A DNA stretch of 64,000 nucleotides from Squalus acanthias (Eukaryota): assembly GCA_030390025.1 (NCBI GenBank), contig CM059431.1, positions 153,948,001 through 154,012,000 of the forward strand, written 5' to 3'. Numbering within the stretch: position 1 is the stretch's first letter; every line of letters begins with the position of its first letter. The notes under the pieces were generated by a model. The model was not told the DNA's origin. It made no database searches and saw only the letters and a program-made list of their open reading frames with translations. The position numbers and the translations under genes were made by a program. Of this stretch, positions 16,481-39,900 are shown in pieces.

Positions 16481-16674
16481 AAGATACCATATGTGGATTT
16501 TTAACATGGAGCTGCGTGACCAAACAGAAAAGCATATTGAATAGAAACATTAGCCAGCCAGTGGTTCATGATTGTCGGTACCATTTCTCGAGTCTGTCAC
16601 TGCATTCGGTGAAGATAACATGGGATGAGCTGTGCAGGTAATTTGCTTACTTAATGCGCATACTGAGTGTGATG

Positions 16675-16875
16675 GGGATGGCAGTGCAAGTAGAGTGCCG
16701 CAACTGCAGCATGTTCGAATTTCTGGAGAGCATTGTGATCCCGGACATCCACGTTTGTAGTAAGTGCCTGCATCTTGAAGAACTTCAGTTAAGAGTTATT
16801 GAGCTGGAGTCTGAGGTGCAGAAATTCCGGGGTATCAGGGATGGGGAGAGTTACCTGGACACTTTGACACAGGAG
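16675..16875 (+). mobile_element. CR1 ORF1 5' part (zinc finger / leucine zipper), split from 36930-40816 by the ERV
   Basis: CRNC...HVCSKC..LQLRVIELESEV...YLDTLTQE continues as (E)AVTP at 36930. Confidence 0.85.
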
Positions 16876-17701
16876 TGTAGGGGGTTTTGGTTTGTGTCAA
16901 CTTCACCTCTGACCTCTGAGCGGTTCGAATCGCTCCCACACCCTTGGTTTTACACTTTGGATTTATTTGGGGGTTGTGATAAAAAGTGCAGCAGACAACT
17001 GCTTTAGATGCAAGAACTTTGATCTTTATTCAAGAGAGTAAAACACAACACAAACACTCTTAACACTCTAAAAGTGGGGAACACTTCGGTACAAGCGAGG
17101 GAAATAACATTAAAAGAGTACGACAGCACTCCCAATCACACTTTACTAGCTAGGCTGGACTCCAGAGGACCAGTGATGATACTCACCAGAATCCTTGACA
17201 GTTAGGTTAGTTCGCGGTTTTGAGGTTCACTCTATATATCGGTTGCTGTCTGCCGTACCCCATACGCGGTAGAGGACTTCAACTGCGTATCTGGACAGTC
17301 TTCGCGAGTCCGCTGATGCGGTAGGGTGTGTATTGGATTTATCAGGTGAGTACCAACTTTTCTTTGGTTTAGAAGTAGGTTTTAGAGTTTTTTAAGGGAA
17401 AATCTACCCAGGGATAGTCAGGAGTAGATTGTAGAGTTGAAATTTTGCGGTTCTTCGATTTTCTTCGAGTTGGTTTTCTTTGGCCGCGCTGGCCCAAATA
17501 TTGATACTTGGTGTTTGTTTGGTTGTTTCGTGAGGGCCTTGTTGCCGCGAGGTGTCCGATGGTCACTGAGGCGATCATACTGGTTTCTTCACGTGTCGGC
17601 CTACTTTGTTGCATGGTCTGGCCTTCGAGCTGTCGAACTTCTGGCTGGACACAGAACACTGAACGGTGATGTTTTTAGAACTGTGTTGCGGAGAATGCCT
17701 C

Positions 17702-20700
17702 ATAGAAACATAGAAACATAGAAGATAGGAGCAGGAACAGGCCATTCAGCCCCTCGAGCCAGCTCCACCATTCAATGAGATCATGGCTGATCATCCAAAT
17801 TCAGTACCCTGTCCCTGCCTTCTCTCCATATCCCTTGATCCCTTTAGCTTTAAGAAATATATCTAACTCCTTCCTGAATATATTTAATGAATTGGCCGCT
17901 ACTACATTCTGTGGTAGAGAATTCCAGAGGTTCACTCTCTGGGTGAAGAAATTCCTCCTCATCTCAGTCCTAAATGGCTTACCCTTTATCCTTAGACTGT
18001 GACCCCTGGTTCTGGACTCCCCGGCCATCGCGAACATCCTTCCTGCATCTAGTCTGTCTAGTGGTGTTAGAATTTTATATGTTTGAATGAGATCCCCTCT
18101 CATTCTTCTAAACTCCAGCGAGTATAAGCCCAATCGTCCCAAGCTCTCCTCATTCGTCATTCCTGCCATCACAGGTATCAGCCTGGTTAATCTTCGCTGC
18201 ACTCCTTCCATGGCAAGAACATCCTTCCTCAGATAAGGCGACCAAAACTGCACACAATACTCAAGGTGTGGTCTCACCAAGGCCCTGTACAACTGCAGCA
18301 AGGCATCCTTGTTCCTGTACTCGAACCCTTTCGCTACGAAGGCCAACATACCATTTGCGTTCTTAAACGCCTGCTGCACCTGCATGCTTACCTTTAGCGA
18401 CTGGTGCACAAGGACACCCAGGTCTCGTTGCACTTCTCCTTATCCCAATCTATTGCCATTCAGATAATAATCTGCCTTCCTGTTTTTGACACCAACATGG
18501 ATAACCTCGCATTTATCCACATTATATTGCATCTGCCATGCTTCTGCCCAATCACCCAACCTGTCCAAATAGTACTGGAGTTTATCGGCATCCTCCTCAT
18601 GGTACGCACTCCCACTTAGCTTTGTGTCGTCTGCAAACTTGGAGATATTAAATCTAATTCCCTCGTCAAGATCATTAATATATATTATGAATAGCTGGGG
18701 TACTAGAACCGATCCCTGCGGTACCCCACTAGTCACTGCCTGCCACTCGGAAAAAGAGCCCATTTATTCCAACTCTTTGCTTTCTGTCTGCCAACTAGTT
18801 CTCTATCCAAGTCAATACCTTGCCCCCAATCCCATGTGCCTTAACTTTGCACGCTAATCTCTTGTGCGGGACCTTATCTAAAGCCTTCTGAAAGTCCAAA
18901 TACACCTCTTCTACTGGTTCTCCCTTATCTATTTTACCAGTTACATCCTCAAAAAATTCCAGTAGATTAGTCAAGCACGATTTACCTTTTGTAAATCCAT
19001 GTTGAGTTTGGCCGATCCTGTCACTGTTTTCCAGATGCTCTGATATTACATCTTTTTTATAATGGACTCTACAATTTCCCCACTACCTATGTCCGGCTTA
19101 CCGTTCTATAATTCCCCGTTTTCTCTCTACCACCTTTTTTGCATAGTGGGGTAAAATTAGCTACCCTCCAATCCATGGGTACTGTTCCAGAGTCTAGAGA
19201 TTTTGGAAGATGAACCGCAATGCATCTACTATTTCTAGGGCCACTTCTTAAGTACCCTCGGATGTAGATTATCAGGCCCTGGGGATTTATCGGCCTTCAA
19301 TCCCGTCAATTTCCCTAACATAATTTCCCTACAAATACTGATTTCTTTGATTTCCTCCCTTTCATTTGACCCTATGCTCCCCGACATCTCTGGGAGGTTA
19401 TTTGTGTTCTCCTTTGTGAAGACAGAACCAAAGTATGTATTTAATTGATGTGCCATTTCTTTGTTCCCCATTATTAATTCCCCTGATTCTGACTGCAAGG
19501 GACCTACGCTTGAATTCACCAATCTTTTTCTCTTCACTTATCTATAAAAGCTTTTACACTCAGTTTTTATGTTCCTCACAAGCTTACTCTCATACTCTAT
19601 TTTCCCCCTCTTAATTAATCCCTTTGTCCTTCTTTGCTGAATCCGATACTGCTCCCAATCCTCAGGTTTGCTGCTTTTTCTGGCCAATTCATATGTCCTC
19701 TCCTTGGATCTTATGCTATCCCTAATTTCCTTTGTTAACCACGGTTGAGTCACCTTTTTTGTTTTATTTTTATGCCAAACTGGGATGAAGAAATTCTGTA
19801 GTTCATTCATGCGATCTTTGAATATTTCCCATTGCCTATCCACCGTCAACCCTTTGAGTGACATTCCCCAATCAATCCTACCCAACTCGCGCCTCATACC
19901 ATCGTAGTTTCCTTTACTTAAATTCTGGACCCTAGTCTCTGAGTCAACTACTTCACCCCCCACCTTAATGAAGAATTCTATCATATTATGATCGCTCCGA
20001 CTCAAGGGCCTCGCATAACAAGATTGCTAATGAATCCTTTCTCATTACATAATACCCAGTTTAAGATGGCCTGATCTCTAGTTGGTTCCTAGACATATTG
20101 GTCCAGGAAACCATCCCGTATACACTTCAGGAATTCCTCCTCCACAGTATTGTTACTAATTTGTATAGCCCAATCTATATGTAGATTAAAGTAGCCCATG
20201 ATAACTGCTGTGCTCTTATTGCACGCTTCTCTAATTTCCCTTTTAATGCCATCCCTAATCTCCGTATTAGTGTTTGGGTGTCTCTACAGCACTCCCACTA
20301 TCGTTTTCTGCCCCTTGGTATTTCTCAGTTCTACCCATACAGATTCTGCATCATCAGAGCTGATATACTTACTTACAATTGTGTTAATTCCCTCTTTAAC
20401 CAGTAATGCTACCCCACCTCCTTTTCTTTTTTGCCTATATTTTCTGAATATTGAATACCCCTGTATGTTGAGTTCCCAGCCTTGGTCACCCTGGAGCCAT
20501 GTTTTCGTAATCCCAATCATATCATATTCATTTACCTCTATTTGCGCAGCTAATTCATCGAACTTATTATGAATGCTCCTCGCATTAAGACACAAAGCCT
20601 TCAGGCATGTTTGTTTTACGCTCTTAGACCTTTCAGAATTATTATTTACTGTGGCTACATTTGACTTAAACTCTTGATTTCTATGGCTGACACCTTTGTT

Positions 20701-22116
20701 TTTTTCCTTCCTGACTTCTGCTTCCATCCTTGTTTCACTTTCCTCTGTCTCCCTGCTCAGGTTCCCAACCCCCTGCCATTTTAGTTAAACCCTCCCCCAG
20801 AGCACGAGCAAACACTCCCCCAAGGACATCGGTCCCAGTCCTGGCCAGGTGCAAACTGTCCGATTTGTAGCGGTCCCACCTCCCCCAGAACCGGTTCCAA
20901 TGTCCCAGGAATTTGAATCCCTCCCACTTGCACCATTCCTCTAGCCACGTATTCATCTGAAATATCCTTCTATTTCTACTCTGACTAGCACGTGGCACTG
21001 GTAGCAATCCTGAGATTACTACCTTTGAGGTCCTATTTTTTAATTTACCTCCTAACTCCATATATTCAGCTTTTAGGACATCATCCCATTTTTTACCTAT
21101 ATCGTTGGTACATATATGCACCACGACAACTGGCTGTTAACCCTCCCCTTCCAAAATGTTCTGCAGCCGCTCTGAGACATCCTTGACCATTGCAGCAGGG
21201 AGGCAACACACCATCCTGGAGTCTCGTTTGCGGCCGCAGAAACGCCTATCTATTCACCTTACAATAGAATCTACTATCACTATAGCTCTCCCACTCTTTT
21301 TCCTGCCGTCCTGTGCAGCAGAACCACCCCTGGTGCCAGGAAGTTGGCTGCTGCTGCCTTCCCCTGATATGCCATCCCCCTCAACAGTATCCAAAGCGGT
21401 ATATCTGTTTGAGAGGGGTTTGTCCACAGGGGCCTCCTGCACTACCTGCCTGCGCCTACTACTCTGCCTGGTGGTCACCCGTTCCCTTTCTGCCTGTGCA
21501 AGCTTTAGCTGCGGTGTGACCAAATGGATAAACGTGCGATCCACTTGTTCCACAGCATCGCGAATGCTCCAGTATGTATCCATTCGCAGCTCCAGCGCCA
21601 CAATGCGTTCTGCCAGTAGCTGCAGCTGGATAAACTTCCTGCACACATGGTCGTCAGGGACACAGGAAGTGTCAACGATTTCACACATAGCGCAGGAGGA
21701 GCATACCACGGCGCCGATCATATCACGGTGCCATGATTAAATCAAATCAATCCCACCAATTATACTATAATTAAATGATATAGGGCCCATGTTTACCAAC
21801 TGTCCCCCAAACACCACAGAGACCCTAGAAACTATAAACCACAAAATTTAAGATTGGAAAAAGGAGAAAAAGAGAAATACTCACCAACTAATCACTTACC
21901 TGCTTTCTGGTGACGTCACACTTTGATTATTTTTTACTACTCTCTCTCCCGCTCTCGGGGCTCAGATTGGTAAGCCTACCTGGTCGCCGTCGCCTTTTAT
22001 TGCCGCCGCCTCGCCGCTGTCGCTCCACCCAGGTCCGCCGCCTCTGTGGGCCTACCTGCTCGCTGCCGCCTTTTATTGCCGCCTCCTCGCCGCTGTCGCT
22101 CCACCCAGATCCGCCA
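17702..22116 (-). mobile_element. Full-length CR1 LINE (5' tandem repeats, ORF1, ORF2, tail), inactivated
   Basis: ORF1 ~21721-20781 (zinc finger, zipper, esterase); ORF2 pieces 20727-17801; (TTTCTATG)n tail; CCTC duplicated at 17698-17701 and 22117-22120. Confidence 0.93.
21974..22116 (-). repeat. Two ~76-bp GC-rich tandem units at the CR1 5' end
   Basis: GCCTACCTG...CCTTTTATTGCCGCC..CTCGCCGCTGTCGCTCCACCCAG occurs twice; a CRE-like TGACGTCA lies at 21912-21919 in the 5'UTR. Confidence 0.8.
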
Positions 22117-23070
22117 CCTCCGTCGATGTCTTCTTGTACTTCCTTCCTCTTCTTCTTTTAGGTTGAGAACGGGCCTTCAATAATACACATTGAAGGTTCC
22201 TTTTCTGCGCGCCAAATCAGGTCTCGGTCTTTGTAAGTTTTGGCGGGTCGTCAACAGTCACTGGTTTGTTAAGGTGTGAGGTGGTTCCAGGATGGACCCA
22301 TCCCGTTGATTTGCCACTTAATCTGAGTTTGATTGTTGCTATATTTTGGGTTTTCTTGGCTGGGCCTATGATTTGTATAGAGTATGCCGAAGTAATCTGT
22401 TTTATGCATGTCTTAATGAGCTCTGTAACTTTGGGGTGGAGACTGGTTTTCCTCGGGCTTATTGTTAGGATGCTATTGTCTGATAGGGGCCGATTTAAAC
22501 TCCCAGCGAGATCATGCGGTTCCCCAGACAGTTCCCATTAGCTCCAATACCCAAACTGTTTTTACAGAGGTTGAACTCACCTTCCTCCACAGCTTTTTCT
22601 CCCTTACAAGCCCAGACATGTTTGAAAAGTACCAAATCTTGGTTTTTGCTCAACAGGTCCTCCGGTTCGGCCCAATGCACTTCACCACCCTGTAATAGCT
22701 AGAAAGGAGTCCAAAGTCTTTTTCCTTAGGGTTTGTCTTCGAGTTTTGGGGAATCTCTGAATTTTGAGAATATTACAGTTCCCGCTGTGATACTTTACCA
22801 GCTAGAGTATCATACCGGGTGAGCAAAATTCCTGATCCTCGAGAACCAACCTTCCCCTGCAGTTTACCTATCTAAGACCCAAAACACACATTTCTCTGTT
22901 GATATAGTGTTCAGATGCAGGCACAGGTAAGAATCCAGTTACATTCACATCCAAGCATGGAGGGGGTCCCACACCCCTGCACCAGTTGGAAAGTATTACA
23001 TACATAGCAAAAATAATAATACACATTCACAAAAACTTTATTCATTTTAATAAAACAATTCAGACTCGCC

Positions 23071-25416
23071 CTAAACCTGGCCATAGGCTTTATTGTAATG
23101 CTGGTCCCATTCTTTCTCATGTCGGGATCGGAACACTCTGTCCTTTCCCTTGCATTTTGTGCACAGTAAGTAGAGAAGTATGCCAAGCTGGCAGACCAAT
23201 AAAATATGGGAAGCCATTCTAATCCAGAAAGGGACCTCTATATTTTCGAAAATATCCCACCAGGGTGGAATTATGATGCCTGAAATCTCGGCCCCTATCT
23301 CGACTGTCTTTTGTTCCAGAGTGTAGAAATGTTGTTGCGATACTTGTACTGCTTTGAGTAGGGCGGTAAAATGTTCGGGTAGAGGAGCAATCTTATAGCC
23401 GAAGAATGTGACATACTTTTGCAGATTGGTAATGTTTTCCCTGACAGTGAGGTGAACAGTTGAGGTTTCAGGAATCGGTACAATCCGTTCCTGGGCCACT
23501 TGAACTTCTGCCTCGGGTTTAAAGCAGAAACTACTGTCACTTACCGGACACCAGATGTGCTGTCCATGGTGGTAGTGGGGCGCACTTGTGGTGACACGAT
23601 ATGTCCCACCCCCTATGAATGCTACCTATGGGGGAACATGGCCTTGTGCCATTACCTCCATGCTACAGTTGATATTTCGTGCGCCAGCAGCTTTAAACCC
23701 ACACTGTGGTCTAGAATAGGCATTCAAGTGCTGGGGACACAGTATTATGTGTGCACCCCGGCTCCGGCACCTGGAGAGTTCAGTACCCGTCATAGCGTGC
23801 TCCCACTTTATGACATAAGGTGGGACCGCTGCGAAACGGACGTGTGCACCCCCTTGAATGACCCTAATGTTCTCCACCCTTTATACCGGTGCGGGACGGG
23901 CTGTCCCACCCATGACCGGCATCCTCACCACTATCCACATGATAGAGTGATTGAAACGCCCACAATCTACAGGGATTGGGCAGGCTTCAGAGGCTAGGCG
24001 GAGTTGACATGGGCTCAGCGAATTGCTAAACGGGAGGAGGGCTGTGAGGTGTTAGTTGCTAATCCAGGAGGGGACTAAACTTTGTTTTATATCCTCCAGG
24101 TTGCTGCGGCCCTCGCCCAGCAACCATGCCCCGTATAGCACACACACCTCATTCTGTGCAGCCTGATCCGAAGCATTCCTATCCTCCCGTATGAGTGCAT
24201 TTACTGTTTTTGCGTGTCTCTCCAGCTCAGAAATAATCTCCTTTAAATGGACCGTCATAGTTTGGTCCTCGTGTAGCTCTGAGTTTAAAACTGTGTTTTC
24301 TTCCGTTAGGATCTTTCTCAGTTGTGTTTTTAGACCATGTATCTGTGTTTACTTTTCTATATCGTCCAGGCTATTTATGACAGAGGATCCTGTATTGCAG
24401 GTTGTGAAAATATCGTTGCAGGTCCCCCTTCTCTGTCTCCCTGCGCCCATAGTATGCTCTGCGTGTAGTTTGTACAGCTCTGCTTTGTCTGTGTTGGCAA
24501 AGTCGAATTCGTAGAATTTCCTAAACATCTCTTTCAGCAGGGCCTGGTATAGCTCTTCTGTCTCCTTAGGACACCACTCAGGTAAGTCTACCTCGGTAAG
24601 GTTTAGGATCACTGAAGCTATTGCATATTGTACCCCCTGGCAGAGTACATTTTCGGTCGGCACTAGCACTAGCACATTCTCTGGTCCCTTGGTGATGGTA
24701 GGACACCTCTCTATCACTGTCCGTGATGTCGTGGGCGTGGGCAGGGGCTTTCGTGGGCATGCTAGTAGTTCGGTGGCGTTGACTGGGATCGGGGAGTGTG
24801 GGAGCGTACACCCATGTAGGCTAGAGTCCCACCCCATCCCCTTCCCGGCATCTTGCCATTGCCTGGAGAAGATGATGGATATGCCTGTGGGGCAGTCTCT
24901 CTCTGATCCTTTCATACAGACATAGATTCCCTGTTCTGACTCCCACCACTTGTCCCAACAAACACTCACACCCCCTTAGGTCCCTGTGATCGGCCGGTAG
25001 CTGTCGTTCCCCATTCGTTCCCAGCCAAATGTACGGTCCCCTATGTCCCTCCTCAGCTTCCTGAGCCACCACCACCTATCCAGGGGAATCCGTCCCTTGC
25101 AGGTGAGACACACATGTTTCCCCTCAGTGACACTGTCCCTTTTGACAACGACCTGTACCCTGGGGCACGGGATGGAGGCCTCCCCGTATGTGAACCCGGT
25201 CTGGCTGGAGTATTCTGTAGAATAAAACCCCAGCCACCCTGGCCAGCTTCCCTCATGGAAGTAAATAGCGAGCCCCTCCACACCCGGTTTGCCACCCCCA
25301 GCTGTAACGATCGGCGCTCTCTCTCCCGAGCAGCCATAAATGTGGGAGTCCTCCACGTCACCTTCGTCGCCGATGCTCACCCCTACCAGGGCGAGCAGGA
25401 GCAGAACCCTTGTCAT
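23071..25416 (-). pseudogene. env: ERV envelope glycoprotein, ~780 codons in one frame with several premature stops
   Basis: ORFs starting at 25416, 24969, 24258, 23877 and 23499 share a frame. Signal peptide MTRVLLLLALVGVSIG, furin site RQRR, heptad region, Cys-rich region and TM ILLVCQLGILLYLL. Confidence 0.88.
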
Positions 25417-25429
25417 GCCGATTTCCTCT

Positions 25430-25455
25430 CTGTAGGGACAGACAGAACAAATAGC
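25430..25455 (-). promoter_or_regulatory. env splice acceptor
   Basis: Minus strand CTATTTGTTCTGTCTGTCCCTACAG lies 13 nt upstream of the env ATG. Confidence 0.7.
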
Positions 25456-25579
25456 CCTGTCCCGAGAAGGTTCTCTGGCTTGACAGGTGATCGATTCTCG
25501 AAAATTTAAACTTACTTTGGTAAAATTAACTCACTAAAACTAAAACTACCAAAACTGTAAAACACACCTAAAATACACT

Positions 25580-28309
25580 TTAAACTCTGTACATACGCCG
25601 CCCGTCTCTGGACGGACAGGCTAAATCCTGTATGGCCTCTGTCTTGCAGCTTCTGTGCAGCCTGTACACCTGGGCGTAAGTTGGCCTGTACCGCAGGACC
25701 TTGAGAGTCCTTCTTAAAACAACTGAGGGTTTCCCTGAATCCCTGATAATCCGGGGAGTGTCCCCTCCTGTGCTACAGCACTCCGCCCCATTTGGTGTGG
25801 CTGCTGAGGCACTGTCCTGTCCTGTGGGTTCCTCGCAGCCTGTGGCCGCTGCCTGGGGATCCCTTTTCTTGGAATTACCCCTGACTTTGGCTATTCTCTT
25901 TCGGGTCGCAGCCCTTGCTGGGCTGAACCATTGAAGCTCTGGAGTCCACGATAGTTTTGGCTGTGGTGTGCGAGGAGACCGTCTTAGGACTCCCGCTACC
26001 GAGGGTGCGTCCGAGTCCCACATAATTGGTGGCGTGGCCCCTCCGGTGCGGTCTGTGAGTCTGCCACAGCTGCTTGCTGAGGATCTCTACCTTTAGGGCG
26101 TATCGCCTTTGCTGGCTGTTCCCCTTTCGGTTTAAACAGCTTACACTGGTTCATGTGGAATCACTTTGTCCGGCGGGGCATCGTTATGGCGTAGACCATG
26201 GGGCCTGACTTGTCGACAACGCTGTACAGCCCCATGTATAGTGGTTCCAAACTCTCTACCCGGGCAAAATTCCTAACCATGACCTGATCCCCTATCTCTC
26301 ACTCGTGGTGCTTGCGGGGTTCTAGCAGCAGTCGGTTACTCCGATGCTGTTTTCCCATGTTGCTAGCAGCCTGCCAGTGAACCTGTTTAAGGTTTTCAAA
26401 CAGATTCCTGACGAAGCTGTACCGGTTCACCTCACTGAGCTGAACCTCCCTGAGCACCGGGGCTAGCACATGGGTGGGGGTCCGCATAATCCTGCCAGTC
26501 ATTAGCTGGTGTGGGGAATACCCCGTACTTTTTGACTGGCTAGCTCGGATCCCCATTAGGACCAACGGTAAAACTTCTACCCTCTTCTTGGGCGAGTCTC
26601 CCATTTCCTTCAGTCGCCTTTCCTTAATGGTATGGTTTAACAACTCCACAGGACCCGATCACTGCGGGTTGTGGGCGATGTGCCATTTCCCTTCGATGCC
26701 GAGTACCGTGAGGGTCTTCTGCATGACCTGCCCGGTAAAATGACACCCATGGTCGATCTCCACAAACAGCGGTAGTCCCCATCGTGAGACAACTTCCCTG
26801 ATCAGAATCCTAGCCGTACGCAATGCGGTAGCAGTACGGCAAGGGAACGCTTCCACCCACTTAGAGAACACATAGACAAGGACTAGTTAGTAATTAAAGC
26901 CTCCCTGGGCGGTGGGTAGGGGCCTGATGTAATCTACCTAGATCGACAGCCATGGTCCTTCGACCCTCCTGATGAGTCCCATAGATACCTTCCTTTTCTG
27001 GGGGTCTGGGATGTTAGCAGCACATACCAAACAGCCGGCACAGAACAAGCAGACTTCTTCCCTCAGTCCTGGCTACCATCCTGTCTGTTCCACCCGTTGC
27101 CAGGTGGTCTCAGTTCCGGGATGCCCCGCTCCTGGACCCTCATGGGCCAATTGAAGGAATTCCCTTCTAAGCGGCACCACCCACTGCTCCCCCCTGAACA
27201 GCATGCCTTTCTTAACGGTGATGGCTGCTCTGCCGTACGGGCCCTTTATCTTTTTCCCCTTTTTCAAGGGCGTTCAGGACGGCCTTGAGGAGGGTATCCT
27301 GGGCTTGGGCCTGTTTTAAGTCCGGGGCCAAGGCTACCCCTTAGGTGCCTCCCTTTCTCCGGATTGCGGCTACTGGACCAATTTGCTACGGATCGCAGAA
27401 CACTCCATCCCTGGCCCCCTGTTTGGCCAGCTCGTCTGCCTTACAGTTACTCTCCCAACTGGGCTCTGTCTTTGAATGGGCCTTGACCTTATGGTTATAG
27501 ACCTTCCCTTCCTCCCCCACAGCCGCATGATTTTCTCCAACAGGGGCTTTATGGTGAGGGGTCTCCCATCAGCGGAGTTATTTCCGCGACGGGACCAGAT
27601 GGCCAGGTACTCCGTACACGAATTGCATGTGAACATGCTGTCCGAGCAAATAGTGTATGGTGTAGGGAACTTCTCGGGGTGTGTAACCACGTACACTACC
27701 GCGGACAGTTCAGCCTGCTGGGCGCTCATGGTGCTGGGGAGTTTAATTGCCAGGGCAATGCCTGCCTCCTGGTCATAAACTCCACACCCGGTGAGTTGCT
27801 TGCCAGAAGATACTGTGCTCGAACGGTCCACATAGATTTCGCGGCCTGTGGGGTGTATCCCGGCCCGAAAACCAATATGACTTCCCATACCCCTTCAATG
27901 GAACACCGGTGGGCTGTCCCTGGGTAGATCATTTTGTCCGCGAGCTAAGACTCGCAGAGACCTTTCACCCTTAGGTCCATCTTGGAGAGAAGCAGGGTCC
28001 AGCGAGCAATACGGGCACTGCTCACTGTCCCGTCTTCGATTCTCCCATCTAGGAGCATCTGGGTGGTCGTGTGATTGGTGAGCAGGGTGATCGGAGATGT
28101 GCCTGTGAGGATCAGTGATCTTTTCACAGCCCAGTGAGAGGCGAAGAGGTGCCACTCACAGTTGGAATAGCCCTTCTCCACATCGGTGAGTATCCTGGAG
28201 GAGTAAACCACCGGTCTCAGCCGGTCGTGCCTCTATTGGAGCAGCACGGCACTCAGACTGTCCCCGCTGGCTGCCACTTCCAGGAAAAGCTTACTCTCCC
28301 CATCAATAG
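25580..28309 (-). pseudogene. pol: ERV pol 3' part: tether, RNase H, integrase and C-terminal extension
   Basis: VYSSRILTDVEKGYS (tether); IYVD..SAQQAEL..ICSDS (RNase H); H..GH..CLVC, FSKWVEAFP, IDHGCHFTG and GPVE (integrase). Confidence 0.9.
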
Positions 28310-28696
28310 GTGCAGAACATTCTGGAGGGGGAGGGGGAACAGCCAGTTGTCGTGATACATGTTGGTACCAACGACGTAGCTAAAAAAAGGGAAGAGGTCC
28401 TACAAGTAGAATTTAGGGAGTTAGGAGCCAAGCTAAAAAGTAGGACCTCGAAGGTAGTAATCTCTGGATTACTACCAGTGCCACGTGCTAGTAAGAGTAC
28501 AGAGAACAGGATAGTTAGGCTAAATACGTGGCTTGAGCATTGGTGTAAGAGGGAGGGTTTTAAATTTTTGAGGCATTGGAACCAGTTTTGTGGTAGGTGT
28601 GACCTATACAAAAGGGACGGTCAACACCTGTGCAAAGATGGAACTGATGTTCTCGGGGTAATTTTTGATAAAGCAGTTCGGGAGCATTTAAACTAG
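28310..28696 (+). CDS. CR1 ORF1 C-terminal SGNH/esterase-like domain (5'-truncated)
   Basis: VVIHVGTND, VVISGLLPVP and DGQHL motifs; open to TAG. Confidence 0.85.
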   Translation: MQNILEGEGEQPVVVIHVGTNDVAKKREEVLQVEFRELGAKLKSRTSKVVISGLLPVPRASKSTENRIVRLNTWLEHWCKREGFKFLRHWNQFCGRCDLYKRDGQHLCKDGTDVLGVIFDKAVREHLN

Positions 28697-31638
28697 TATG
28701 GCAGGGGGCTAGAAACCTATGTAGTGAAATAGAGGAAAGTGAAAGGCAGACAGAAATAAATGGTAAAAGGGTGAGGAACAAAAAACAAAGGGCCAAACTA
28801 ATTCATAAAAAATGTGAGCATAAAAAAAGCCTGAGGGTTTTATACCTTAATGCGAGAAGCATCAGGAACAAGGTAGATGAATTAGCTGTGGAAATAGAGG
28901 TTAATAATTATGATCTAATTGGGATTACGGAAACATGGTTGCAGGGTGAGCAGGGCTGGGAGCTTAACATACAGGGGTATTCAGTATTTAGGAAGGATCG
29001 ACAAAAAAGAAAGGGAGGAGGGGTAGCATTGCTGGTAAAAGAAGGGATAAATGCAATTGAAAGGAAGGATATTAACTCAGTTAATACAGAATCTATATGG
29101 GTGGAGCTAAGAAATAGCGAGGGGCGAAAAACATTAATAGGAGTGGTATATAGGCCTCCAAATAGTAAAATAGAGGTTGGGGAGGGCATCACGAGGGAAA
29201 TTAGAGAAGCGTGCAATAAGAGCACAGCTGTCATCATAGGTGACTTTAACTTACATATAGATTGGAATAGCCTAATCAGTAAAAATAATGAGGAGGAGGA
29301 ATTCCTTGAGTGTTTAAGGGATGGTTATCTGGATCAATATGTCGAGGAACCAACTCGGGAACAGGCTATATTGGACTGGGTACTGTGCAATGAGAAGGGA
29401 CTAATTAGTAATCTTGTTGTACGGGGACCCTTGGGTCAGAGCGATCATAACATGATCGATTTCTCACTCGAAATGGAGAGCGAAGAAATTGACTCAGATA
29501 CTAAGGTCCTGAATTTAAACAAGGGGAATTATGATGCCATTAGACGGGAACTGAGTAGGTCTGATTGGACAACGTTCCTGGGAGGACTGGAGGTAGATAA
29601 ACAATGGCAAGCATTGAAAGATAGAATGACAAAATTGCAAAAATTGTTTATACCAATCTGGCATAAAAGGAAATCTAAAAAGGTGACTCAACCGTGGATA
29701 ACAGGGGAAATTAGAGACAGCATAAAATCCAAAGATAGGGCGTATAAAATAGCCAAAAAAAGCGCCAGAGCGGAAGATTGGGAACAGTTTAAGATAGAGC
29801 AAAGGAGGACAAAGGGCTTAATCAAGAGGGGCAAAATAGCTTACGAAAGCAAGCTGGCGGAAAATATAAAAACTAACTCCAAAAGCTTTTATAAGTATAT
29901 CAAGAGGAAAAGACTGGTGAAAACCAAAGTTGGCCCATTGCAGTCAGATACGGGGGAATATATAACGGGAAATAAGGAAATGGCAGACCAACTAAATGCA
30001 TACTTTGGGTCAGTCTTTACGAAGGAAGACACAAAAAACCTCCCTGGGATATCGGGAAAAATAGGGACATTTGCAAAGGAGGAACTGACGCAAATCAATA
30101 TCTCTAAGGATATGGTGTTAAGGAAGCTAAAGGGATTGAAGGCGGACAAATCCCCAGGGCCTGATAACATGCATCCTAGGGTGCTGAAGGAGGTGGCCCT
30201 AGAGATAGCGGATGCACTAAGTATGATTTTTCAGAATTCATTAGACTCGGGAACAGTGCCCATGGATTGGAGGGTAGCTAACGTTACCCCACTATTCAAA
30301 AAGGGGGGTAGGGAAAAAGCAGGTAATTACAGACCTGTAAGCCTTACATCAGTTGTGGGCAAAATGCTGGAGTCCATCATTAAGGATGAAATAGCGGAGC
30401 ACTTAGCAAATGGGGACAGGATAGGACAGAGTCAACATGGATTTACAAAGGGTAAATCGTGCTTGACTAATCTATTGGAATTTTTTGAGGGAGTAACTGG
30501 TAAAATAGATGAGGGAGAGCCAGTAGATGTGGTGTACCTGGACTTCCAAAAGGCCTTCGATAAGGTCCCACATAAAAGATTAGCAGGGAAAATTGAAGCT
30601 CATGGGATAAAGGGGAAAGTATTGACGTGGATAGAGAACTGGCTGTCAGATAGAAAACAGAGAGTTGGAATAAACGGCTCATTTTCTGAATGGGAGGCAG
30701 TAACAAGTGGGGTAGCGCAGGGATCTGTCCTGGGTCCCCAGCTGTTCACAATTTACATTAATGACCTGGATCAGGGAGTCGGATGCAGCATTTCCAAATT
30801 TGCAGACGACACTAAACTCGGAGGGGGGGTGGGCTCAGAGGAGGAGACCAGGAAGCTCCAGAGCGATTTGGACAGACTGGGTGATTGGGCGGATAAATGG
30901 CAGATGCACTATAATGTGGACAAGTGCGAAGTTATCCACCTTGGGTGCAGGAACGGGAGGGCAAATTATTATTTAAATGGCAATAAATTGGGAGAGGGGG
31001 AAGTACAGAGAGACCTGGGTGTTCTTGTACACCAGTCACTGAAGGCGAGCATGCAGGTGCAACAGGCGGTCAAGAAGGCAAACGGTATGCTGGCCTTCAT
31101 AGCAAAAGGGTTGGAATACAGGAACAGGGATACCTTGCTGCAGCTGTACAGGGCACTGGTGAGACCACACCTCGAGTACTGTGTACAGTTTTGGTCGCCT
31201 CATCTGAGGAAAGATGTTCTTGCCATGGAGGGGGTGCAGCGGCGATTCACCAGGCTGATACCAGGAATGGCGGGATTGACCTATGAGGAGAGACTATGTA
31301 GTTTAGGGATGTACACACTGGAGTTTAGAAGATTGAGAGGGGACCTCATAGAAGTGTATAAAATTCTGACAGGTCTAGACAGACTAGATGCAGAAGGAAT
31401 GTTTCCCTTGGCGGGTGAGAACAGAACTAGAGGACATAATTTAAGGATAAGGGCTAAACCATTTAGGACAGAAATGAGGGGGAATTTCTTCACTCAGAGG
31501 GTGGTGAACCTGTGGAACTCATTGCCACAGAGGGCAGTGTACGCCAGCTCATTAAATATATTTAAGAGGGAATTAGATATATTTCTACAGGCAAAAGGGG
31601 TTAAGGGTTACGGAGAGAAGGCGGGGACGGGATACTGA
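28672..31638 (+). CDS. Intact CR1 ORF2: APE endonuclease plus reverse transcriptase
   Basis: Frame is open from 28672 (track: 955 aa from GTG 28771). Motifs YLNARS, GITETW, YRPP, GDFN, SDH, QHGF, FADD and RGH. First in-frame ATG is at 29452. Confidence 0.95.
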   Translation, partial: SSSGAFKLVWQGARNLCSEIEESERQTEINGKRVRNKKQRAKLIHKKCEHKKSLRVLYLNARSIRNKVDELAVEIEVNNYDLIGITETWLQGEQGWELNIQGYSVFRKDRQKRKGGGVALLVKEGINAIERKDINSVNTESIWVELRNSEGRKTLIGVVYRPPNSKIEVGEGITREIREACNKSTAVIIGDFNLHIDWNSLISKNNEEEEFLECLRDGYLDQYVEEPTREQAILDWVLCNEKGLISNLVVRGPLGQSDHNMIDFSLEMESEEIDSDTKVLNLNKGNYDAIRRELSRSDWTTFLGGLEVDKQWQALKDRMTKLQKLFIPIWHKRKSKKVTQPWITGEIRDSIKSKDRAYKIAKKSARAEDWEQFKIEQRRTKGLIKRGKIAYESKLAENIKTNSKSFYKYIKRKRLVKTKVGPLQSDTGEYITGNKEMADQLNAYFGSVFTKEDTKNLPGISGKIGTFAKEELTQINISKDMVLRKLKGLKADKSPGPDNMHPRVLKEVALEIADALSMIFQNSLDSGTVPMDWRVANVTPLFKKGGREKAGNYRPVSLTSVVGKMLESIIKDEIAEHLANGDRIGQSQHGFTKGKSCLTNLLEFFEGVTGKIDEGEPVDVVYLDFQKAFDKVPHKRLAGKIEAHGIKGKVLTWIENWLSDRKQRVGINGSFSEWEAVTSGVAQGSVLGPQLFTIYINDLDQGVGCSISKFADDTKLGGGVGSEEETRKLQSDLDRLGDWADKWQMHYNVDKCEVIHLGCRNGRANYYLNGNKLGEGEVQRDLGVLVHQSLKASMQVQQAVKKANGMLAFIAKGLEYRNRDTLLQLYRALVRPHLEYCVQFWSPHLRKDVLAMEGVQRRFTRLIPGMAGLTYEERLCSLGMYTLEFRRLRGDLIEVYKILTGLDRLDAEGMFPLAGENRTRGHNLRIRAKPFRTEMRGNFFTQRVVNLWNSLPQRAVYASSLNIFKRELDIFLQAKGVKGYGEKAGTGY

Positions 31639-31735
31639 ATTGGAGGATCAGCCATGATCTCATTAAATGGCGGAGCAGTCTCGAAGGGCCAGATGGCCTA
31701 CTCCTGCTCCTATCTTCTATGTATCTATGTAATAG

Positions 31736-33209
31736 CCCCTGGAGCCGGTGCGGTCTGCAGATCTTTCTTTAACTTGAGAAAGGCTGCCTCGCAACCCTCG
31801 TCCAAGGCCCACTCTACACCCTGTGCAGGAGTCAGAGCAGAGGGGCTGCGGTGTCTGCATAATCCTCAATAAAATCTCTGCAGTACCTGGTTAGCCCTAA
31901 AAAGGATCTCACTCCTGTGACTGTGTTGGGGGCTGGTAACTCTGCACTGCTTCCCTCCTAGCTTTGTCGATGGCCCTTTCCCCAGCGTGCATAGTTAGCC
32001 CTAGGAATTTTACTTCCAGTTGACCGATCTGTAACTTTTTGGGGTTTACCTTGAAGCCTTCTTGCCGGAGCAGCTCCAGCAGTTCAGCCAGTAGTGGACC
32101 GTATTCCGCTCCCTCATCGGTAAACAGGAGTAGGTCATCCACATACTGTATCAACTGCCGGGGCCGGCTGAAGCCATTCAAACAATTCGCCATGCATTGG
32201 TGAAAAATGCTAGGGCACTTGTGGAAGCCCTGAGGTTGGCAGTTCCAGGTGTACTGTTGTCCTTTAAAAGTGAAGGCGAACTTGTACTGGTCCTCTCTTC
32301 GTAAAGGGATTGAAAAAGCCCGTTGGAAATGTCCAGCACTGTGAAAGTGGTCGCAGATGCTGGGATACTTCCGATGAGGTCGGCGACGGCTGCTACCGTG
32401 GGTGCACAGGCGGGGATGTTACGTTTGAGTACCCGATAGTCCACTGTGGCCTTCCAGGAGTTGTCCGGTTTTCTAACCGGCCACAGTGGAGAGTTTACGT
32501 GGGTGGCTATCGATCTCAATATCCCCTGTGTTACTAAAGAAGCCATGGCCTTTTCCATGTCGGCTTCTGCCTCCCTGGGGAAATTGTATTGCTTCTGTGG
32601 TTGGGTCATGGGGTCCCCGCTGACAATAACCTCGACCCCGTTTACCCTCCCATAATCGTGCTTGTGATTGGCAAATGCTGCGAGGATTACTCGCACAAAT
32701 GCCTGGTATGCCATCGTAGTGTTACTGACCATTCGTTCGAGTTCGTAACCTTCCTTTGGTTTCAGGGTGCAAAAGTTCCCCTTGCCCTGTTTCCCTGGGA
32801 TGACTGCCACTTCACTTTCTCTGCCGGTACATGCTCCCCACAGACAGTGGTTCCTAAGATCCACTAGAATCCTATGGCCTGTGATAAAGTTGTCCACCAG
32901 GATCCCCGTCCCTTCCCGTTCCCAGTTCATCAAGACACAGGTCCACTTGGTGTGGAGTGCTCCTAAATGAATAGACAGCGGGATGGCGAACGAGCCAGCC
33001 TGCTCGTTACCTGTAAACCCCACTAAACTGTACGGGGCCCCATTAGACAGAGGTGAGGCGGCGGAGTTCGCTGAATAGACTATGGTGCTGAAAGTTCCAG
33101 TATCTAACAGATAAGTGACTTTCATCTTCTCCACTTCCATCTTAACGAGTGGTCTCTTCCATGCGTCGTACTACAAGAGACACAGGTGGACAGGCTGCGC
33201 TGGTTCCAG
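31736..33209 (-). pseudogene. pol: ERV pol 5' part: aspartic protease and reverse transcriptase
   Basis: LLDTG; QKQY..NSPLWPVRKPDNSWKATVDYR; FTVLDISNG; QYVDDLLL. Confidence 0.92.
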
Positions 33210-35389
33210 TCATGAGTCTGAGTTGGGGGGTGGGGGCAATGGGGCTAAAGCACCAGTGGCGGTGGCAACTTTCCCCGGGCCGTTGACTAGAGCTCGGATT
33301 ACGGCCATGACCGAGTCTAGCGTGGGGGAAGTGGTCGGTGCTTCGCTGCTTGGGGCAGGAGCTGGGGAGTTCTTCCCTACGTTATACTTCCACGGATTCC
33401 TACAGTCTTTTCTCCAATGCTAAATCTTCTCGCAACCGAAGCAGTTACGATTCGTGTCGGAAGCTTCCTGGTGCCACTCTTTCCTGTTACTAGGCCTTAT
33501 TAGGGCAACACTGTGGCATAGTGGTTAGTACTGGTGCCTCATAGCGCCAGGGACCCGGGTTCGAATCTTGACCTCGGGTGACTGTCTGTGTGGAGTTTGC
33601 ACATTCTCCCCGTGTCTGCGTGGGTTTCCTCCGGGTGCTCCGGTTTCCTCCCACAGTCCAAAAATGTGCGGGTTAGGTTGATTTGGCTATGATAAATTGA
33701 CCCTTAGTTTTACGGGGGGATTAAATATGTGGGGTTGTGGGGATAGGATGGGATATGTTAGGGGGAATTAAATACGTGGGGTTACGGGGGTAGGGTGGGA
33801 TATGTGTACTGTGGGGATTAAAGCAGGGACATGGTACTGGATTTGGATGATCAGCCAATATCGTATTGAATGGTGGAGCAGGCTCGATGGGCCGAATGGC
33901 CTACTCCTGCTCCTAGATTCTATGTTTCTATGTTTATTTCGTGGATCTTTCCCTCAGGTGGGTGCTCTTCTGTTCCTCTACCATTCCGGTAAGCCAGGGC
34001 CAGTGGTCTGACCACTGTCTCCTCGGTGACCCGGGGGTCGTTCGGGTCAAACCACAGCTCAGATTGGCCCTGAACTGTGGCAAGCTGTTTGCCACTCGGC
34101 TTCGGAGCCAGTGGGCCAGCTCATTCTGATTCAGGTGAGCCCGGTCGAGAACCCCATTACAGGCTCTCCTGTACACAGGCCACAGTCGGTCTGTGAATGC
34201 CTGTGGGGTCTCCCCTACTAGCGGGGTTGTCTTCTCCACCCAGGAGAAGGGACAACCATCATTAATTCCCATGGCCTCCAGAACTTCCTCCCGGATAGCA
34301 GCGTATCCACCCTGCCCTCTTTTACACTCTGCAGAGAGGGACTGGTAGATTTTCCTATCTAGGGAGAACAGGAGCATTTTTGCCAGCACGGCATCATCGC
34401 AGACTTTGATACCCGCTGCCTGTTCCACTTCCATGAAGTGGACTGAGGGGTCTCCTTTTTGGGTGAGCTTGCCCAGGTTTTTTTATCATAGACTTAAGCT
34501 GTTGGGTGCCATGCGGAGCCACGAATTGGATTTCAAGGGGTCCTTGACTCCCACCACGACCGGGCGTGCCAAACATTTGCTGCCGGACCGGGCACATCGG
34601 CCCCGGCTCCGACGTTTACTGCATTGGTTCGCCCTCCCCTCCCTGCTGCCAAATCGAGTCAAAACCCGGCGCCACAGGTGGTGGTGTACACTCCCTGCCA
34701 GCCTCACAAATCGTCCGTCCCTCCTGCTGCCAAACCGGGTCGTTCCCCGGCGCCACAGGTGGCGTCCGAACAGTTTGCCTTTGCATTTCCAGTTCCACCC
34801 GGTCCGCACCCGGGCTTAGTCGGCATACCACGCCTTTCGCCCTGGACAGACCAAGGATCAAGCTCTCGATTTGTTTCTGGCAGGGACCGTCATCTCCCGC
34901 CTCATATCCCCTCGTGTTTGCTATCTTGTAAGCGGCCTGGACGCCTCTCAACCTCTCCTCCTTCTCTCTTACTTGTTTGGCCAGGCGAGTGTTCTCTTCC
35001 CGCAACAACAGTTCACTGGTTTTAGCTTCGGTGACCTGACACTGAAAATATTCCTGCCTGTCTCCGTGTGTTTCCACTAGCTGCATTTTTTCCTGATTTC
35101 GGATGGTTAACTCATTCAGTAATGTTTCCCCTGCTAGGGCCCTTGCTTGAGACAGCTGAGCAGACACCTGCAGTTCTGCCTTAAGTGCCTCAACACGTTT
35201 GTCTAACAGATGGATCTGTCGCTGGGAGCAGGTCAACCAGATGGCCTTTTCCACAGATTTCTTGTCGTCCTTGCTCTAAGTCCATTTAGCTGCAGCGTCT
35301 ATTGGACGCTCAGCACGCAACAGACTGAGTAACCATTTCTTGGTTATGTTCACTTTCTCGAACACATAAGAGGAAATTCTCACTTCCAT
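33210..35389 (-). pseudogene. gag: ERV gag: coiled coil, Pro-rich repeats, capsid-like region, CCHC knuckle
   Basis: AAGATGG start at 35389 is in frame with ORF 35254-34616; capsid-like GETPQAFTDRL; CFGCEKI*HWRKDC at ~33400-33445; TGA at 33212-33210. Confidence 0.82.
33502..33933 (+). mobile_element. Full-length V-SINE (HE1-like) with CR1 tail, inserted in gag
   Basis: A/B boxes, V-domain, duplicated G-rich unit and CR1 3'UTR; TTATT duplicated at 33497-33501 and 33934-33938. Confidence 0.92.
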
Positions 35390-35449
35390 CTTGGTTCTCT
35401 CCTCAAAAACAGTGTCCACTGCATCACATCCCTTTTGCCAAGGTCCTGC

Positions 35450-36929
35450 CACGGTCGGTTTGTGTCAGATTCACCTCTCCACTGAGCGGTTCGAATCGCA
35501 CCCACTCCCTTGGTTCTAGACTTTGGACTTATTTGGGGGTTGTGATAAAAAGTGCAGCAGACAACTGGTTTTAATGCAAGGATTTTGATCTTTATTCAAG
35601 AGAGTAAAACACAACACAAACACTCTAAACACTCTAAAAGTGGGGATAAACTTCGGTAAAAGCGAGGGAAATCACATTAAAAGAGTACGTCACCCCTCGC
35701 AATTCCACTTTACTAGCTAGTTGGACTCCAGAGGACCAGGGATGATACTCACCAGAATCTTTGACAGTTAGGTTAGTTCGCTCTTTTGGGGTTCACTCTA
35801 TATGTCGGTTGGTGTCTGCTGTACCCCGTACGCGGTAGAGGACTTCAACTGCATATCTGGTTAGTCTTCGCGAGTCCACTGATGCAATAGGATGCGTATT
35901 GGATTTATCAGGTGAGTACCCACTTTTCTTTGGTTTGGAAGTAGGGTTTAGAGTTACTTAATAGAACATCTTACATAGGGGTAAGTCAAGAATAGATTGC
36001 AGATTGGAAATTTTGCGGTTCTTTGGTTTTCTTCGAGTTGGTTTTCTTTGGGCGTGTTGGCCCAAATATTAATACTTGATGTTTGGTTGGTTGTTTCGTG
36101 AGGGCCTTGTTGCCGCGAGGTGTCCGATGGTCACTGAGGCGATCATACTGGTTTCTTCACGTGTCGGCGTACTTTGTTGGATGGACCGGCCTTCGAGCTG
36201 TCGACCTCCTTGCTGGACACGGAATGCTAAATGGTGTTGGTTTTTGAACTGTGTTGCGGAGAATGCCTCCGTCAAATGTCTTCTTGTTCTTCCTTCCTCT
36301 TCTTCTTTTACAAGTTGAGAACGGGCCTTCAATTATACCCATTGAAGCTTCCTTATCTGCGTGCCAAATCAGGTCTCGGATCTTGACGGTTTTGGCGGGC
36401 TCGTTAACGGTAACTGGTTTGTTAAGGTGTGAAGTGGTTCTGGGATGACCCCCATCCTGTCAATTTGCCAATTAGTCGGAGTTTTATTGTTCTTATGTTT
36501 TGGGTTTTCTTGGCTGTACCTTTGATTTATATGGAGTAGGCCGAAGTAATCTGTTTTATGCATGTCTTAATGGACTCTGTAACTTGGGGTGGAGACTGGT
36601 TTTCCTCGGGTTTATTGTTAGGATGCTAATGTCTGATAGGGGCCGATTTAAACTCGCAGCGAGATCATGCAGTTCCCCAGACAGTTCCCATTAGCTCCAA
36701 AACCCACACTTTTTTTTACAGAGTTTGAACCCACCTTCCTTCACAGCCTTTTCTCCCTTACAAGCCCAGACATGTTTGAAAAGTACCAAATCTTGCTTTT
36801 TTCTCAAAGGGTCCTCCAGTTAGACCCAATGCCTTTCAGCACCCTGTAATAGCTAGAAAGGAGTCCAAAGTATTTTCCTTACGGTTGTCTTCGAGTTTTG
36901 GCGGATCTGTGAATGTTGAGAATCTGACA
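35450..36929 (-). repeat. 5' LTR
   Basis: Uninterrupted homologue of the 3' LTR; donor at 35747-35753, AATAAA at 35591-35596. Inner boundary uncertain by ~10 bp. Confidence 0.88.
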
Positions 36930-39900
36930 GAGGCAGTCACGCCCCTTCCGTTAGGTAGTGGCACAGGTCTGGTTAGTGTTCGGGGTCAGGAGGGTGTGGA
37001 CTGCAACTCAGGCAGGTAAGGGGACCCCGGGTGCCGTGCTGGAGGAGCCTCAGCCTTTGTCCTTGTCCAACAGGTATGAGGTTCTTGCTTCAAGTGTGGA
37101 TGAGGGAAAAACCCGCAGGATGGATCAGCAAGCTGACCATGGCACCATGGTGCAGCAGGACATTCAAGTGGGGTGTGTGAAAGTAAATGTAGTTGAGGTA
37201 GGGGCAGTATAATCATGGCGATAGATACTGTTCTCTGCAGCCACGACCGATTGTTCCAAAGGTTGTGTTGCCTGTCCGCTGCCATGGTCGAAGACACATC
37301 CTCGCGGCTGGAGGAGAACTTGTAGTGGCGGGGGCGGGGGGGGGGGGGGTTGCGGGGTGGGAGGTGGTTTCCAGTTGTCGTGGTCCACGTAGGAAACAAC
37401 GATATAGGTAGAACTGGGAATGCGGTTCTGCTGAGGGAGTTCCCGGAGCTCGGATTCAAATTAAAAAGCAGGACCCCAGAGCTAATAACCTCTGGATTGC
37501 TACCTGAACCACGAGCAAATTGGCATAGTGTCAGTGAGATCAGAGCATTGAATGGTTGGCTAAAAATTTGGAGTGGGAGAAATTTATTTCGATTCATGGT
37601 GCACTGCCTTCAGTACTGGGGAAAGAGGGAATAGTTCTGTTGGGACGGGCTTCACTTCAACCATGTTGGGAGCAGTGTCCTGGCGAATCGAATAATTAGG
37701 ACTACAGATAGGGCTTTAAACTAAAAAGTGGACGGGGGCGGGGGGTTGGGGTGTGGTGTCCGGTGTGGGGTAATTTAGAAAGTTAGCGAGAATGGACATG
37801 GCAATAGTGCAAGGTAGCGCTAGTGGTAATGATAACCAGAGTGCGACAGGAAGGGACATAGCGTACAAACGTAAGTGTGCACGAGCAAATAGGGTCAGAA
37901 TAGGGAAAATTGTAATAAGACAAGTTTTAAGGCACTTTATCTAAATGCACGCAGCATTCCTAACAAGATCGATGAATTGACGGCACGAATAGAAATAAAT
38001 GGGTATGATCTGATAGCCATTACAGAGATGTGGTTGCAAGGTGACCAAGGCTGGGAACTGAATTTCATGGGATATTTGACATTTCTGAAGTATAGGCAGA
38101 AAGGTAAAGGAGGTGGTATACCTCTGTTCATAAAGGATGAGATCAGCACAGTCGTGCGAAATGATCTTGGCTCGGAAGATCAAGATGTAGAATCAGTTTG
38201 GGTGGAGATAAGACATAGTAAGGGAAAGAACTCACTGGTGGGAGTAGTCTAAAGGTCACCTAACAGTAGCTACACGGTAGGACAGAGTATAAATCAAGAA
38301 ATAATGGGGGCTTGTAAGAAAGGTACTGCAATAATCATTGGCGATTTTAATCTCCATATAGATTAGACCAATCAAATTGGCAATGGTAGCCTTGAGGATG
38401 AGTTCATAGATTGCATTCGGGAAGGTTTCTTATAACAATACGTTGTGGAACCAACCAGGGAACAGGCTATTTTAGATCTGGTAATGTGTCATGAGATAGG
38501 ACTAATTAATGATAAAGGATCCTCCAGGAAGTGTTATCATAGAATGTAGATTTTCACATTCAATTTGAGGGTGGGAAACTTTAGTCTGGAAATAGTGTCT
38601 CAAACTTTACTAAAGGCAATTGCAAAGGTATGAAGGCAGAGTTGGCTAAAGTGGACTGGGGAAGTAGATTTAAAGGTAAAATTGCAGATAAGCAGTGGCA
38701 GACATTTAAGTAGATATTTCATAACTCTCAACAAAATATATTCCAGTGAGAAAGAAAGATTCTACGAGGAGGATGAACCATCGTGGCTAACTAAGGAAGT
38801 TAAGAATGGTATCAAATTGAAAGAAAATGCATATAATGCTACGAAGATAAGTGGTATGCCAGAACATTTGGATTTTTTTAGAAACCAGCAAAAGATGACT
38901 AAAAAATAATAAAAAGGTGGAAAATAGATTATGAGCGTAAACTAACAAGAAATATAAAAACAAACAGTAAAGCTTCTCCAAGTATATATAAGGAAGAGAG
39001 TAGCTAAAAAAAAAGTGTTGGTCCCTTAGAGGCTGAGACTGGGGAATTAATAATGGAAAACAAGGACATGGCGGAGACTTTGAACACATATTTTGCATCT
39101 GTCTTCACGGCAGAATACACTAAATGAATACCATTAATAATAGATAATCAAGGGGCAAAGGTGAGGGAGGAACTTAAAACAATCACTATCAATAGAAAAA
39201 AAGTACTAGGCAAACTAATTTGACAAAAGGCTAACAAATCCCTTGGGCCTGATGGCCTGCATTCTAGCGTCTTAAAGAAGTGGCTGCAGAAATAGTGAAT
39301 GCATTGGTTGTAATCTTCCAAGGTTCACTAGATTCTGGAAAGTTTCCAGCGCAATGGAAAACCGCTAATGTTACTTTCCTTTTCAAGAAAGGAGCGAGAC
39401 AGAAATCAGGAAACTATAGGCCAGTTAGTGTAACATCTGTCATTGGGAAAATGCTGGATTCCATTATTAATGGAGTAGCAGCACGACTGTTAGAAAATCA
39501 TAGTACAATCAAGCAGAGTGAACATGGTTTTATGAAAGGGAAATCGTGTTTGAAAAATGTATTTGAGTTGTTTGAGGATGTAACGATCAGGGTGGATCAA
39601 GGGGAATCAGTAGATGCAGCGTAATTGGATTTCCAAAAGGCCTTCGCTAAGGTACCAAATAAAAGGTTACTGCACAAGATAAGAGCTCACGGTGTTGGGG
39701 GTAATATATTAGCATGGATAGAGGATTGGCTAACTAACAGAAAACAGAGAGTGAGATAAATGGGTAATTTTCAGGTTGGCAAACTGTAACTAGTGGGGTG
39801 CCACAGGGATCAGTGTTGGGGCCTCAACTATTTACAATGTATTTCAATGACTTGGATGAAGGGACCGAATGTACTGTAGACAGGTTTGCTGAGGATACAA

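Follow-up and report, generated by a model that had tools for sequence, protein, structure and literature searches.

What is the retrovirus-like element in a 64,000-nucleotide stretch of the Squalus acanthias genome (GenBank assembly GCA_030390025.1, contig CM059431.1, positions 153,948,001 to 154,012,000 of the forward strand; hereafter the window), and where among the retroviruses and their relatives does it belong? An earlier note, made from the letters alone, had described a near-complete lokiretrovirus-like provirus here, either a chondrichthyan member of the lokiretroviruses (lokis) or a new related lineage. The provirus is as described: two long terminal repeats (LTRs), gag, pol, and env lie within exact limits of 16876-36929 on the minus strand (running 36929 to 16876), and solo LTRs of the same family end at the very boundary that had been drawn. 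The lokiretroviral half of the description did not survive; of the alternative there stands a lineage that has so far not been named separately. We consider it highly probable that the locus is a dead germline provirus of an abundant family, likely from an elasmobranch, that sits inside the sampled retroviruses, likely belongs to the group resembling snakehead retrovirus (SnRV; clade Huo, class III), and carries an Env predicted to be of the paramyxovirus F type, with a likely immunoglobulin-like (Ig) head.

The pol gene bears most directly on this placement. Queries were natural open Pol frames from sibling copies, compared with walleye viruses, with loki-type Pols picked by the published loki signature, and with 15 viruses that we take, from their motif, to be foamy viruses. 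Pfam profiles matched, in order, a protease (weak, E 0.017), reverse transcriptase (RT), the tether (RT_RNaseH, E 7e-17), and RNase H (E 4e-10), the last two just as the earlier note had read them, and the integrase (IN) yielded its zinc finger, core, and SH3-like domain. The closest RTs in the protein collection came from frogs, coelacanth, and turtles; identity was 41-53% to frog, coelacanth, turtle, and unnamed endogenous retroviruses (ERVs), 44% to SnRV, 31-37% to full-length lokis (which are 50-60% identical to one another), and 30-35% to the 15 foamy viruses. The SnRV reference was the 10,688-nt sequence as given in the available part of PMC12193657; its RT matches the SnRV row in the available part of the supplement of PMC7947760. 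The four RT motifs that had been called spuma/loki-like (QKQY, NSPLWPVRKPD, LDISNG, and YVDD) are all present, but by that same row they are motifs of the SnRV type.

In an RT tree of 51 rows, rooted on Ty3/Gypsy and drawn without true class II viruses, fish foamy-like ERVs, or Odin elements (two rows labelled class II clustered with ERV-L; they probably belong to class III), the lokis formed a clade (100/98) sister to the retrovirus clade (100/99), and both RT pieces of the window fell inside the latter, outside class I, outside the mammalian foamy clade, and outside Ty3/Gypsy. The approximately unbiased (AU) test rejected the topology in which the window RT was forced with lokis (p=0.0059) and did not reject the one in which it was forced with SnRV and the frog and coelacanth ERVs (p=0.49). 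Trees of IN and RNase H, from which 5 of 53 and 16 of 54 rows were omitted for a short or absent match, again held the lokis as a separate clade, with weak deep nodes; the window's IN lay outside that clade and its RNase H outside the loki-plus-foamy branch. The family is inside the sampled retroviruses and is not a lokiretrovirus. Its RT groups within established retroviruses, and SnRV-clustering ERVs are already catalogued in the host group, from the elephant shark (Han 2015, PMC4422223, in the text available); clade Huo has been published for all vertebrate groups (PMC6001957, likewise in part), and 2,843 clade III RT loci have been reported from six chondrichthyan genomes (PMC11089739).

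The envelope gene had been called atypical, and it is. Neither an immunosuppressive domain (ISD) nor a CX6CC motif of the gamma type was seen by eye, Pfam gave no match, and a sequence match to PF00523 was absent. An Env profile run against 1.84 billion proteins returned 54 matches; the 20 that we looked up comprised 11 from sharks and skates, 4 from frogs, and 1 from coelacanth, the rest being unnamed (counted from tables). A 43-sequence profile matched the Env of walleye dermal sarcoma virus (HH probability 97.4%) and that of SnRV (92.8%), and hmmsearch linked the profile to the transmembrane subunit (TM) of foamy Env (E 0.003). An AlphaFold model of a sibling Env had a mean predicted local distance difference test (pLDDT) score of 59, with most of the core at 70-90; its best PDB match by Foldseek was the F protein of human parainfluenza virus 3 (E 5e-11), the PDB matches listed were all paramyxovirus or pneumovirus F, and among viral models the matches were lispi/arli glycoproteins, walleye Env, and baculovirus F. 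Env is thereby predicted to fold like paramyxovirus F. The walleye epsilonretrovirus and foamy Envs and the paramyxovirus and pneumovirus F proteins share this fusion core by profile and predicted fold, whereas their N-terminal modules differ and their Pol is unrelated at genus level. An F-like foamy Env has been published (PMC11468914, in the part available).

About 225 residues precede the F-like core. Residues ~85-190 are predicted to form a seven-strand sandwich (pLDDT 61); the top of the 50 structure matches listed for it consisted of Ig domains, led by TREM-1/2 (Z 7.2), and a language-model search also pointed to Ig families (0.88-0.91). The head is probably an Ig-like domain. A search of the ESM Atlas with the whole Env gave one unnamed match (0.84) and nothing else, and Env heads aligned over a wide set of sequences so poorly that the alignment was left unused. 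The N-terminus of SnRV Env also looks Ig-like by eye; Pfam gave no Ig match for it. A literature search, with subscription papers, Repbase/Dfam, and bioRxiv supplements largely outside its scope, produced no description of the window family, and none of an F-type Env with an Ig head.

The 5' half of the element adds further traits. The CCHC knuckle reported earlier is present in gag, though interrupted by an internal stop codon, and zf-CCHC was matched in a natural sibling Gag (Pfam, E 0.006). The N-terminus of Gag, read earlier as a coiled coil, looks heptad-rich when judged by eye. Among six complete primer sites of the family, two are the exact 18-nt complement of the host tRNA-Arg(UCG) end (with CCA) and the remaining four are one base off; the genome contains 422 occurrences of that tRNA end. 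A contig with long tandem arrays of tRNA-Arg(UCG) and tRNA-Ser(GCU) genes, at a 1.62-kb period, shows the primer tRNA to be highly amplified. The U5 region (~35487-35497 and 16921-16931) holds a conserved GATTCGAACC, with 11 matches, that is complementary to a tRNA T-loop, lies ~45 nt before the primer site, and might pair with the primer tRNA. The gag-pol junction is in frame, and UGA followed by CUA, CUG, or CUC was found in 22 of 22 junction matches. A UGA-CUN context favours readthrough, and we infer that Gag-Pol is made in this way. No large 3' accessory ORF (open reading frame) was seen in the 291 nt between env and the 3' LTR, nor any extra long ORF elsewhere in the element, where no search aimed at an smc-like gene was made.

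Working copies of the family would, on these features, have expressed Gag from RNA transcribed off the LTR, and Gag-Pol through readthrough of UGA-CUN. Reverse transcription would have been primed by host tRNA-Arg(UCG), whose site match is observed and whose use is presumed, and integration would have produced the 4-bp duplication that the solo LTRs display. Env would have been cut at RQRR and would have driven class I fusion as F does, while the Ig-like head would most likely have bound a cell receptor.

We apply the name SnRV-like on the strength of motifs, shared traits, and published usage; it does not denote a supported node. The family agrees with SnRV and clade Huo in RT motifs, an Arg-type primer site (a label that for SnRV is our assumption), an in-frame gag-stop-pol arrangement, a CCHC Gag, and a homologous non-gamma Env core. 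It departs from SnRV in its stop codon (UGA against UAG), in the Arg isoacceptor, in a shorter Env with a short tail, and in that no large accessory ORF was seen 3' of env. The frog, coelacanth, and turtle ERVs, annotated as "NYNRIN-like" or "uncharacterized", have the closest RTs; those of frogs and coelacanth have a homologous Env as well, only 16-31% identical and in some cases with weak Ig matches. CmiERV lineage I of the elephant shark comes from the same host class, and its DNA, inspected by eye, encodes the same RT motifs and a Gag with CCHC, but its env is of the gamma type (ISD and CX6CC, by eye), and the two Env types are unrelated (PMC4422223, in the available text).

Several results weigh against this placement or against parts of it. 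The link of the window RT to the frog and coelacanth ERVs reaches only 85/83, the RT does not pair with SnRV itself, which occupies a long separate branch, and the tree does not settle the branching order among the deepest retroviruses. The AU test did not reject a grouping forced with foamy viruses (p=0.20). In BLAST comparisons the tether and IN score lokis above SnRV (for IN, lokis at 34-42% and at most 257 bits, SnRV at 32% and 150 bits), and the similarity between the family's Gag and SnRV Gag is marginal (E 7e-4). For Env, hhalign gave the foamy TM match a probability of just 38%, an 8-sequence profile left walleye Env undetected, and the Ig call is moderate, with a pLDDT of 61, a best Z of 7.2, and no Pfam match above the cut-off.

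Some of these points speak for an explanation that we nonetheless think unlikely, namely that the family and its relatives in frogs and coelacanth form a separate, unnamed basal branch of Retroviridae, one that stands as far from SnRV as from foamy viruses or others and retains ancestral features of tether, IN, and Env. The open fork at the retrovirus base, the long branch of SnRV, the failure to reject either the SnRV or the foamy grouping, and an IN and tether nearer to lokis than to SnRV all favour it; but coelacanth, amphibian, and elephant-shark elements are already filed as SnRV-like in the available parts of PMC4977317, PMC4422223, and PMC6001957, and the family matches SnRV in the type of its primer tRNA, in the plan of Gag, and in the type of Env. 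What separates this explanation from the SnRV-like placement is largely the question whether SnRV-like elements form a clade or only a grade.

That the element is the first chondrichthyan lokiretrovirus is very improbable, even though it would fill a gap, lokis having been found in 0/6 chondrichthyan genomes (Wang and Han 2020, PMC7947760, in the text available). An F-like Env with an RXRR furin site, a feature shared by walleye, SnRV-type, and foamy Envs, and the fair nearness of tether and IN to lokis by BLAST invite that reading, as does the pairing of tether and RNase H, which is common to all retroviruses and is not diagnostic. Against it stand the RT tree and the AU test; the signature PFGY-NSPAE-NIFL, which is absent from the window RT; and the genome itself, where PFGY-NSPAE had 0 pattern matches and a loki-RT search gave a best match of 43% among 150 scored of 14,838 candidates, the top 5 being nearer to the window's family. 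On these grounds, and under the tree model used, we ruled lokiretrovirus membership out, and the element leaves the 0/6 picture unchanged. Four published loki Envs that we compared, moreover, begin directly at the F-like core, whereas the window family has the additional head with its Ig-like domain, and the loki Gags compared show no CCHC in the parts displayed, where the window family has one; both comparisons were made by eye on the available portion of PMC7947760. Odin retrotransposons, whose RT is sister to lokis, lack env, which the window element has, and Ty3/Gypsy elements (Metaviridae) have a single RNase H where the window element has a tether and a second RNase H. A fish foamy-like ERV (clade Tu) with an acquired CCHC knuckle and readthrough is hardly credible: the weak Env TM match to foamy gp130, the unrejected foamy grouping, and the 4-bp target-site duplication speak for it, but the RT is less similar to foamy viruses than to SnRV and the frog ERVs, the RNase H falls outside the loki-plus-foamy branch, and a CCHC Gag with in-frame gag-stop-pol is an orthoretrovirus trait (PMC8278194, in the part available), Spumaretrovirinae having no CCHC and making Pol separately from Gag.

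The features of the locus are collected in Table 1. The order LTR-gag-pro-RT-tether-RNase H-IN-env-LTR is interrupted by three nested insertions of long or short interspersed elements (LINEs or SINEs), and every gene of the window provirus is broken.

Table 1. Features of the provirus and its target site, in window positions.
Feature	Positions	Strand	Remarks
5' LTR	35457..36929	-	final bases and start of primer-binding site deleted, ~20 nt
Remnant tRNA-Arg(UCG) primer-binding site	35443..35456	-	compared with complete family sites
gag: helical N-terminus, capsid region, CCHC knuckle (33402-33443); ends UGA	33210..35456	-	broken by stops, frameshifts, and insertion
Nested CR1 3' tail and SINE-like piece in gag, 433 nt	33503..33935	+	self-comparison; SINE-like piece presumably a V-SINE
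gag-pol junction UGA-CUG, in frame	33207..33212	-	predicted readthrough site; sibling junctions
pol 5' part: protease, RT, tether start	31731..33209	-	RT frameshifted near 32290 and 31910
Young 5'-truncated CR1-type LINE within tether	28311..31730	+	SGNH ORF1 remnant, open 988-codon ORF2
pol 3' part: tether, RNase H, integrase	26083..28310	-	stops and frameshifts
env, one frame, 781 codons	23071..25416	-	5 internal stops
env parts: signal peptide, N-terminal extension, furin site RQRR (24427-24438), F-like core, membrane anchor (~23150-23235)			
Probable Ig-like domain in Env N-terminal extension	24847..25164	-	model built from natural sibling copy
Polypurine tract	22778..22790	-	short and decayed
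3' LTR, first part	22117..22777	-	
Older CR1-type LINE in 3' LTR	17702..22116	-	broken; 4.4 kb, splits LTR
3' LTR, second part	16876..17701	-	
Target site: ORF1 of host CR1-type LINE	16642..16875	+	resumes at 36930; 3-nt duplication at site

By self-comparison, the two LTRs are 89.5% identical over one block (35457-36269 against 16889-17701) and 88.3% over the other (36266-36930 against 22117-22778). Their Kimura two-parameter distance of 0.109 corresponds to ~25 million years at 2.2e-9 or 250 million years at 2.2e-10 substitutions a year at each site, both rates as quoted in the available text of PMC4422223. Solo LTRs are 89-91% identical to the window 5' LTR, a divergence consistent with a single burst long ago. 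The same chromosome holds two more copies, 94.5-96% identical, that have both flanks, the deletion at the primer site, and the LINE in the 3' LTR in common with the window copy and lack its two internal insertions; the shared flanks, deletion, and LINE mark them as segmental duplicates and not new infections. The LINE within the tether is 98.7-99.0% identical to two other insertions, and to judge by that identity its family has been active recently. The LINE that splits the 3' LTR has two 76-nt GC-rich tandem units (21974-22120) at its 5' end. Comparison of copies shows the order of events at this locus: the provirus inserted into a CR1 LINE; the LTR lost its end and the primer site its beginning; a CR1 entered the 3' LTR; segmental duplication then placed the locus at three or more sites of one chromosome; and lastly two more insertions arose, in this copy only.

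The cartilaginous-fish host proposed earlier was borne out, on more than repeat content, and an elasmobranch is likely: all three close Env homologues (3/3) come from a skate and a sawshark, and fbxo15 exons are 59-89% identical to a horn-shark protein, with no non-shark comparator; a cadherin query was uninformative on the host. Some shark database proteins (Niban-like, cadherin-related 5-like, and an fbxo15 isoform) hold pieces of the window family's Env; these are probably gene-model fusions and possibly exonised ERV sequence.

Within its own 3.7-Gb genome the family is abundant. The env piece drew 8,684 first-look candidates, of which the 150 scored were all 79-100% identical, and the RT piece drew 5,893, of which the 150 scored were all 84-100% identical; these totals are not copy numbers. 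Solo LTRs start with TGTA and finish with TACA, and 13 of the 20 with both ends read are flanked by an exact 4-bp target duplication. A second subfamily, with an env ~71% identical to that of the window, has env frames of at least 780 codons in ~100 of its 150 best matches (by eye). In a sample of ten, biased to top matches, the LTR pairs were at least 99.6% identical in seven, 97.2% identical in one, and not resolved in two, and pol was full-length in four, absent in five, and partial in one. This second subfamily is very young. A copy in permuted order (the 3' part of env, LTR, gag, pol, the 5' part of env, flanked on either side by CR1) recurs near contig or chromosome ends at 35-70 kb spacing, which suggests amplification inside a large subtelomeric repeat. 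The same genome holds another ERV family, whose RT is ~57% identical to that of the window family and 53-56% identical to those of frog ERVs. In a search of sequencing runs no RNA run was listed as holding the locus (shares of 0.14 or less); two RNA runs of another organism gave 2,888 and 3,329 reads along pol and env, on both strands and mostly less than 90% alike, a family-level signal that says nothing about the window locus.

The window locus itself is an ordinary dead copy; what it may mean lies with the lineage. We advance tentatively, as possible and a little short of probable, the view that sharks, frogs, and coelacanth harbour an undescribed retrovirus lineage, placed close to the root of Retroviridae, whose F-type Env has captured an Ig head, that the F-type fusogen is ancestral (shared with loki, foamy, SnRV, and walleye Env), that gamma- and beta-type Envs are later replacements or reductions, and that the sister subfamily is still spreading. 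In the available text of PMC7947760, Wang and Han left four scenarios for the origin of Env open, seeing no similarity between loki and retrovirus Envs. An F-type Env inside the sampled-retrovirus clade, linked by profile to the walleye, SnRV, and foamy Envs, favours those scenarios that have an F-type ancestor. It also makes an F-like Env unusable as a criterion for calling an element a lokiretrovirus, and the recent surveys of fish and amphibian Envs, which sought the gamma and beta types, would miss the F-type class.

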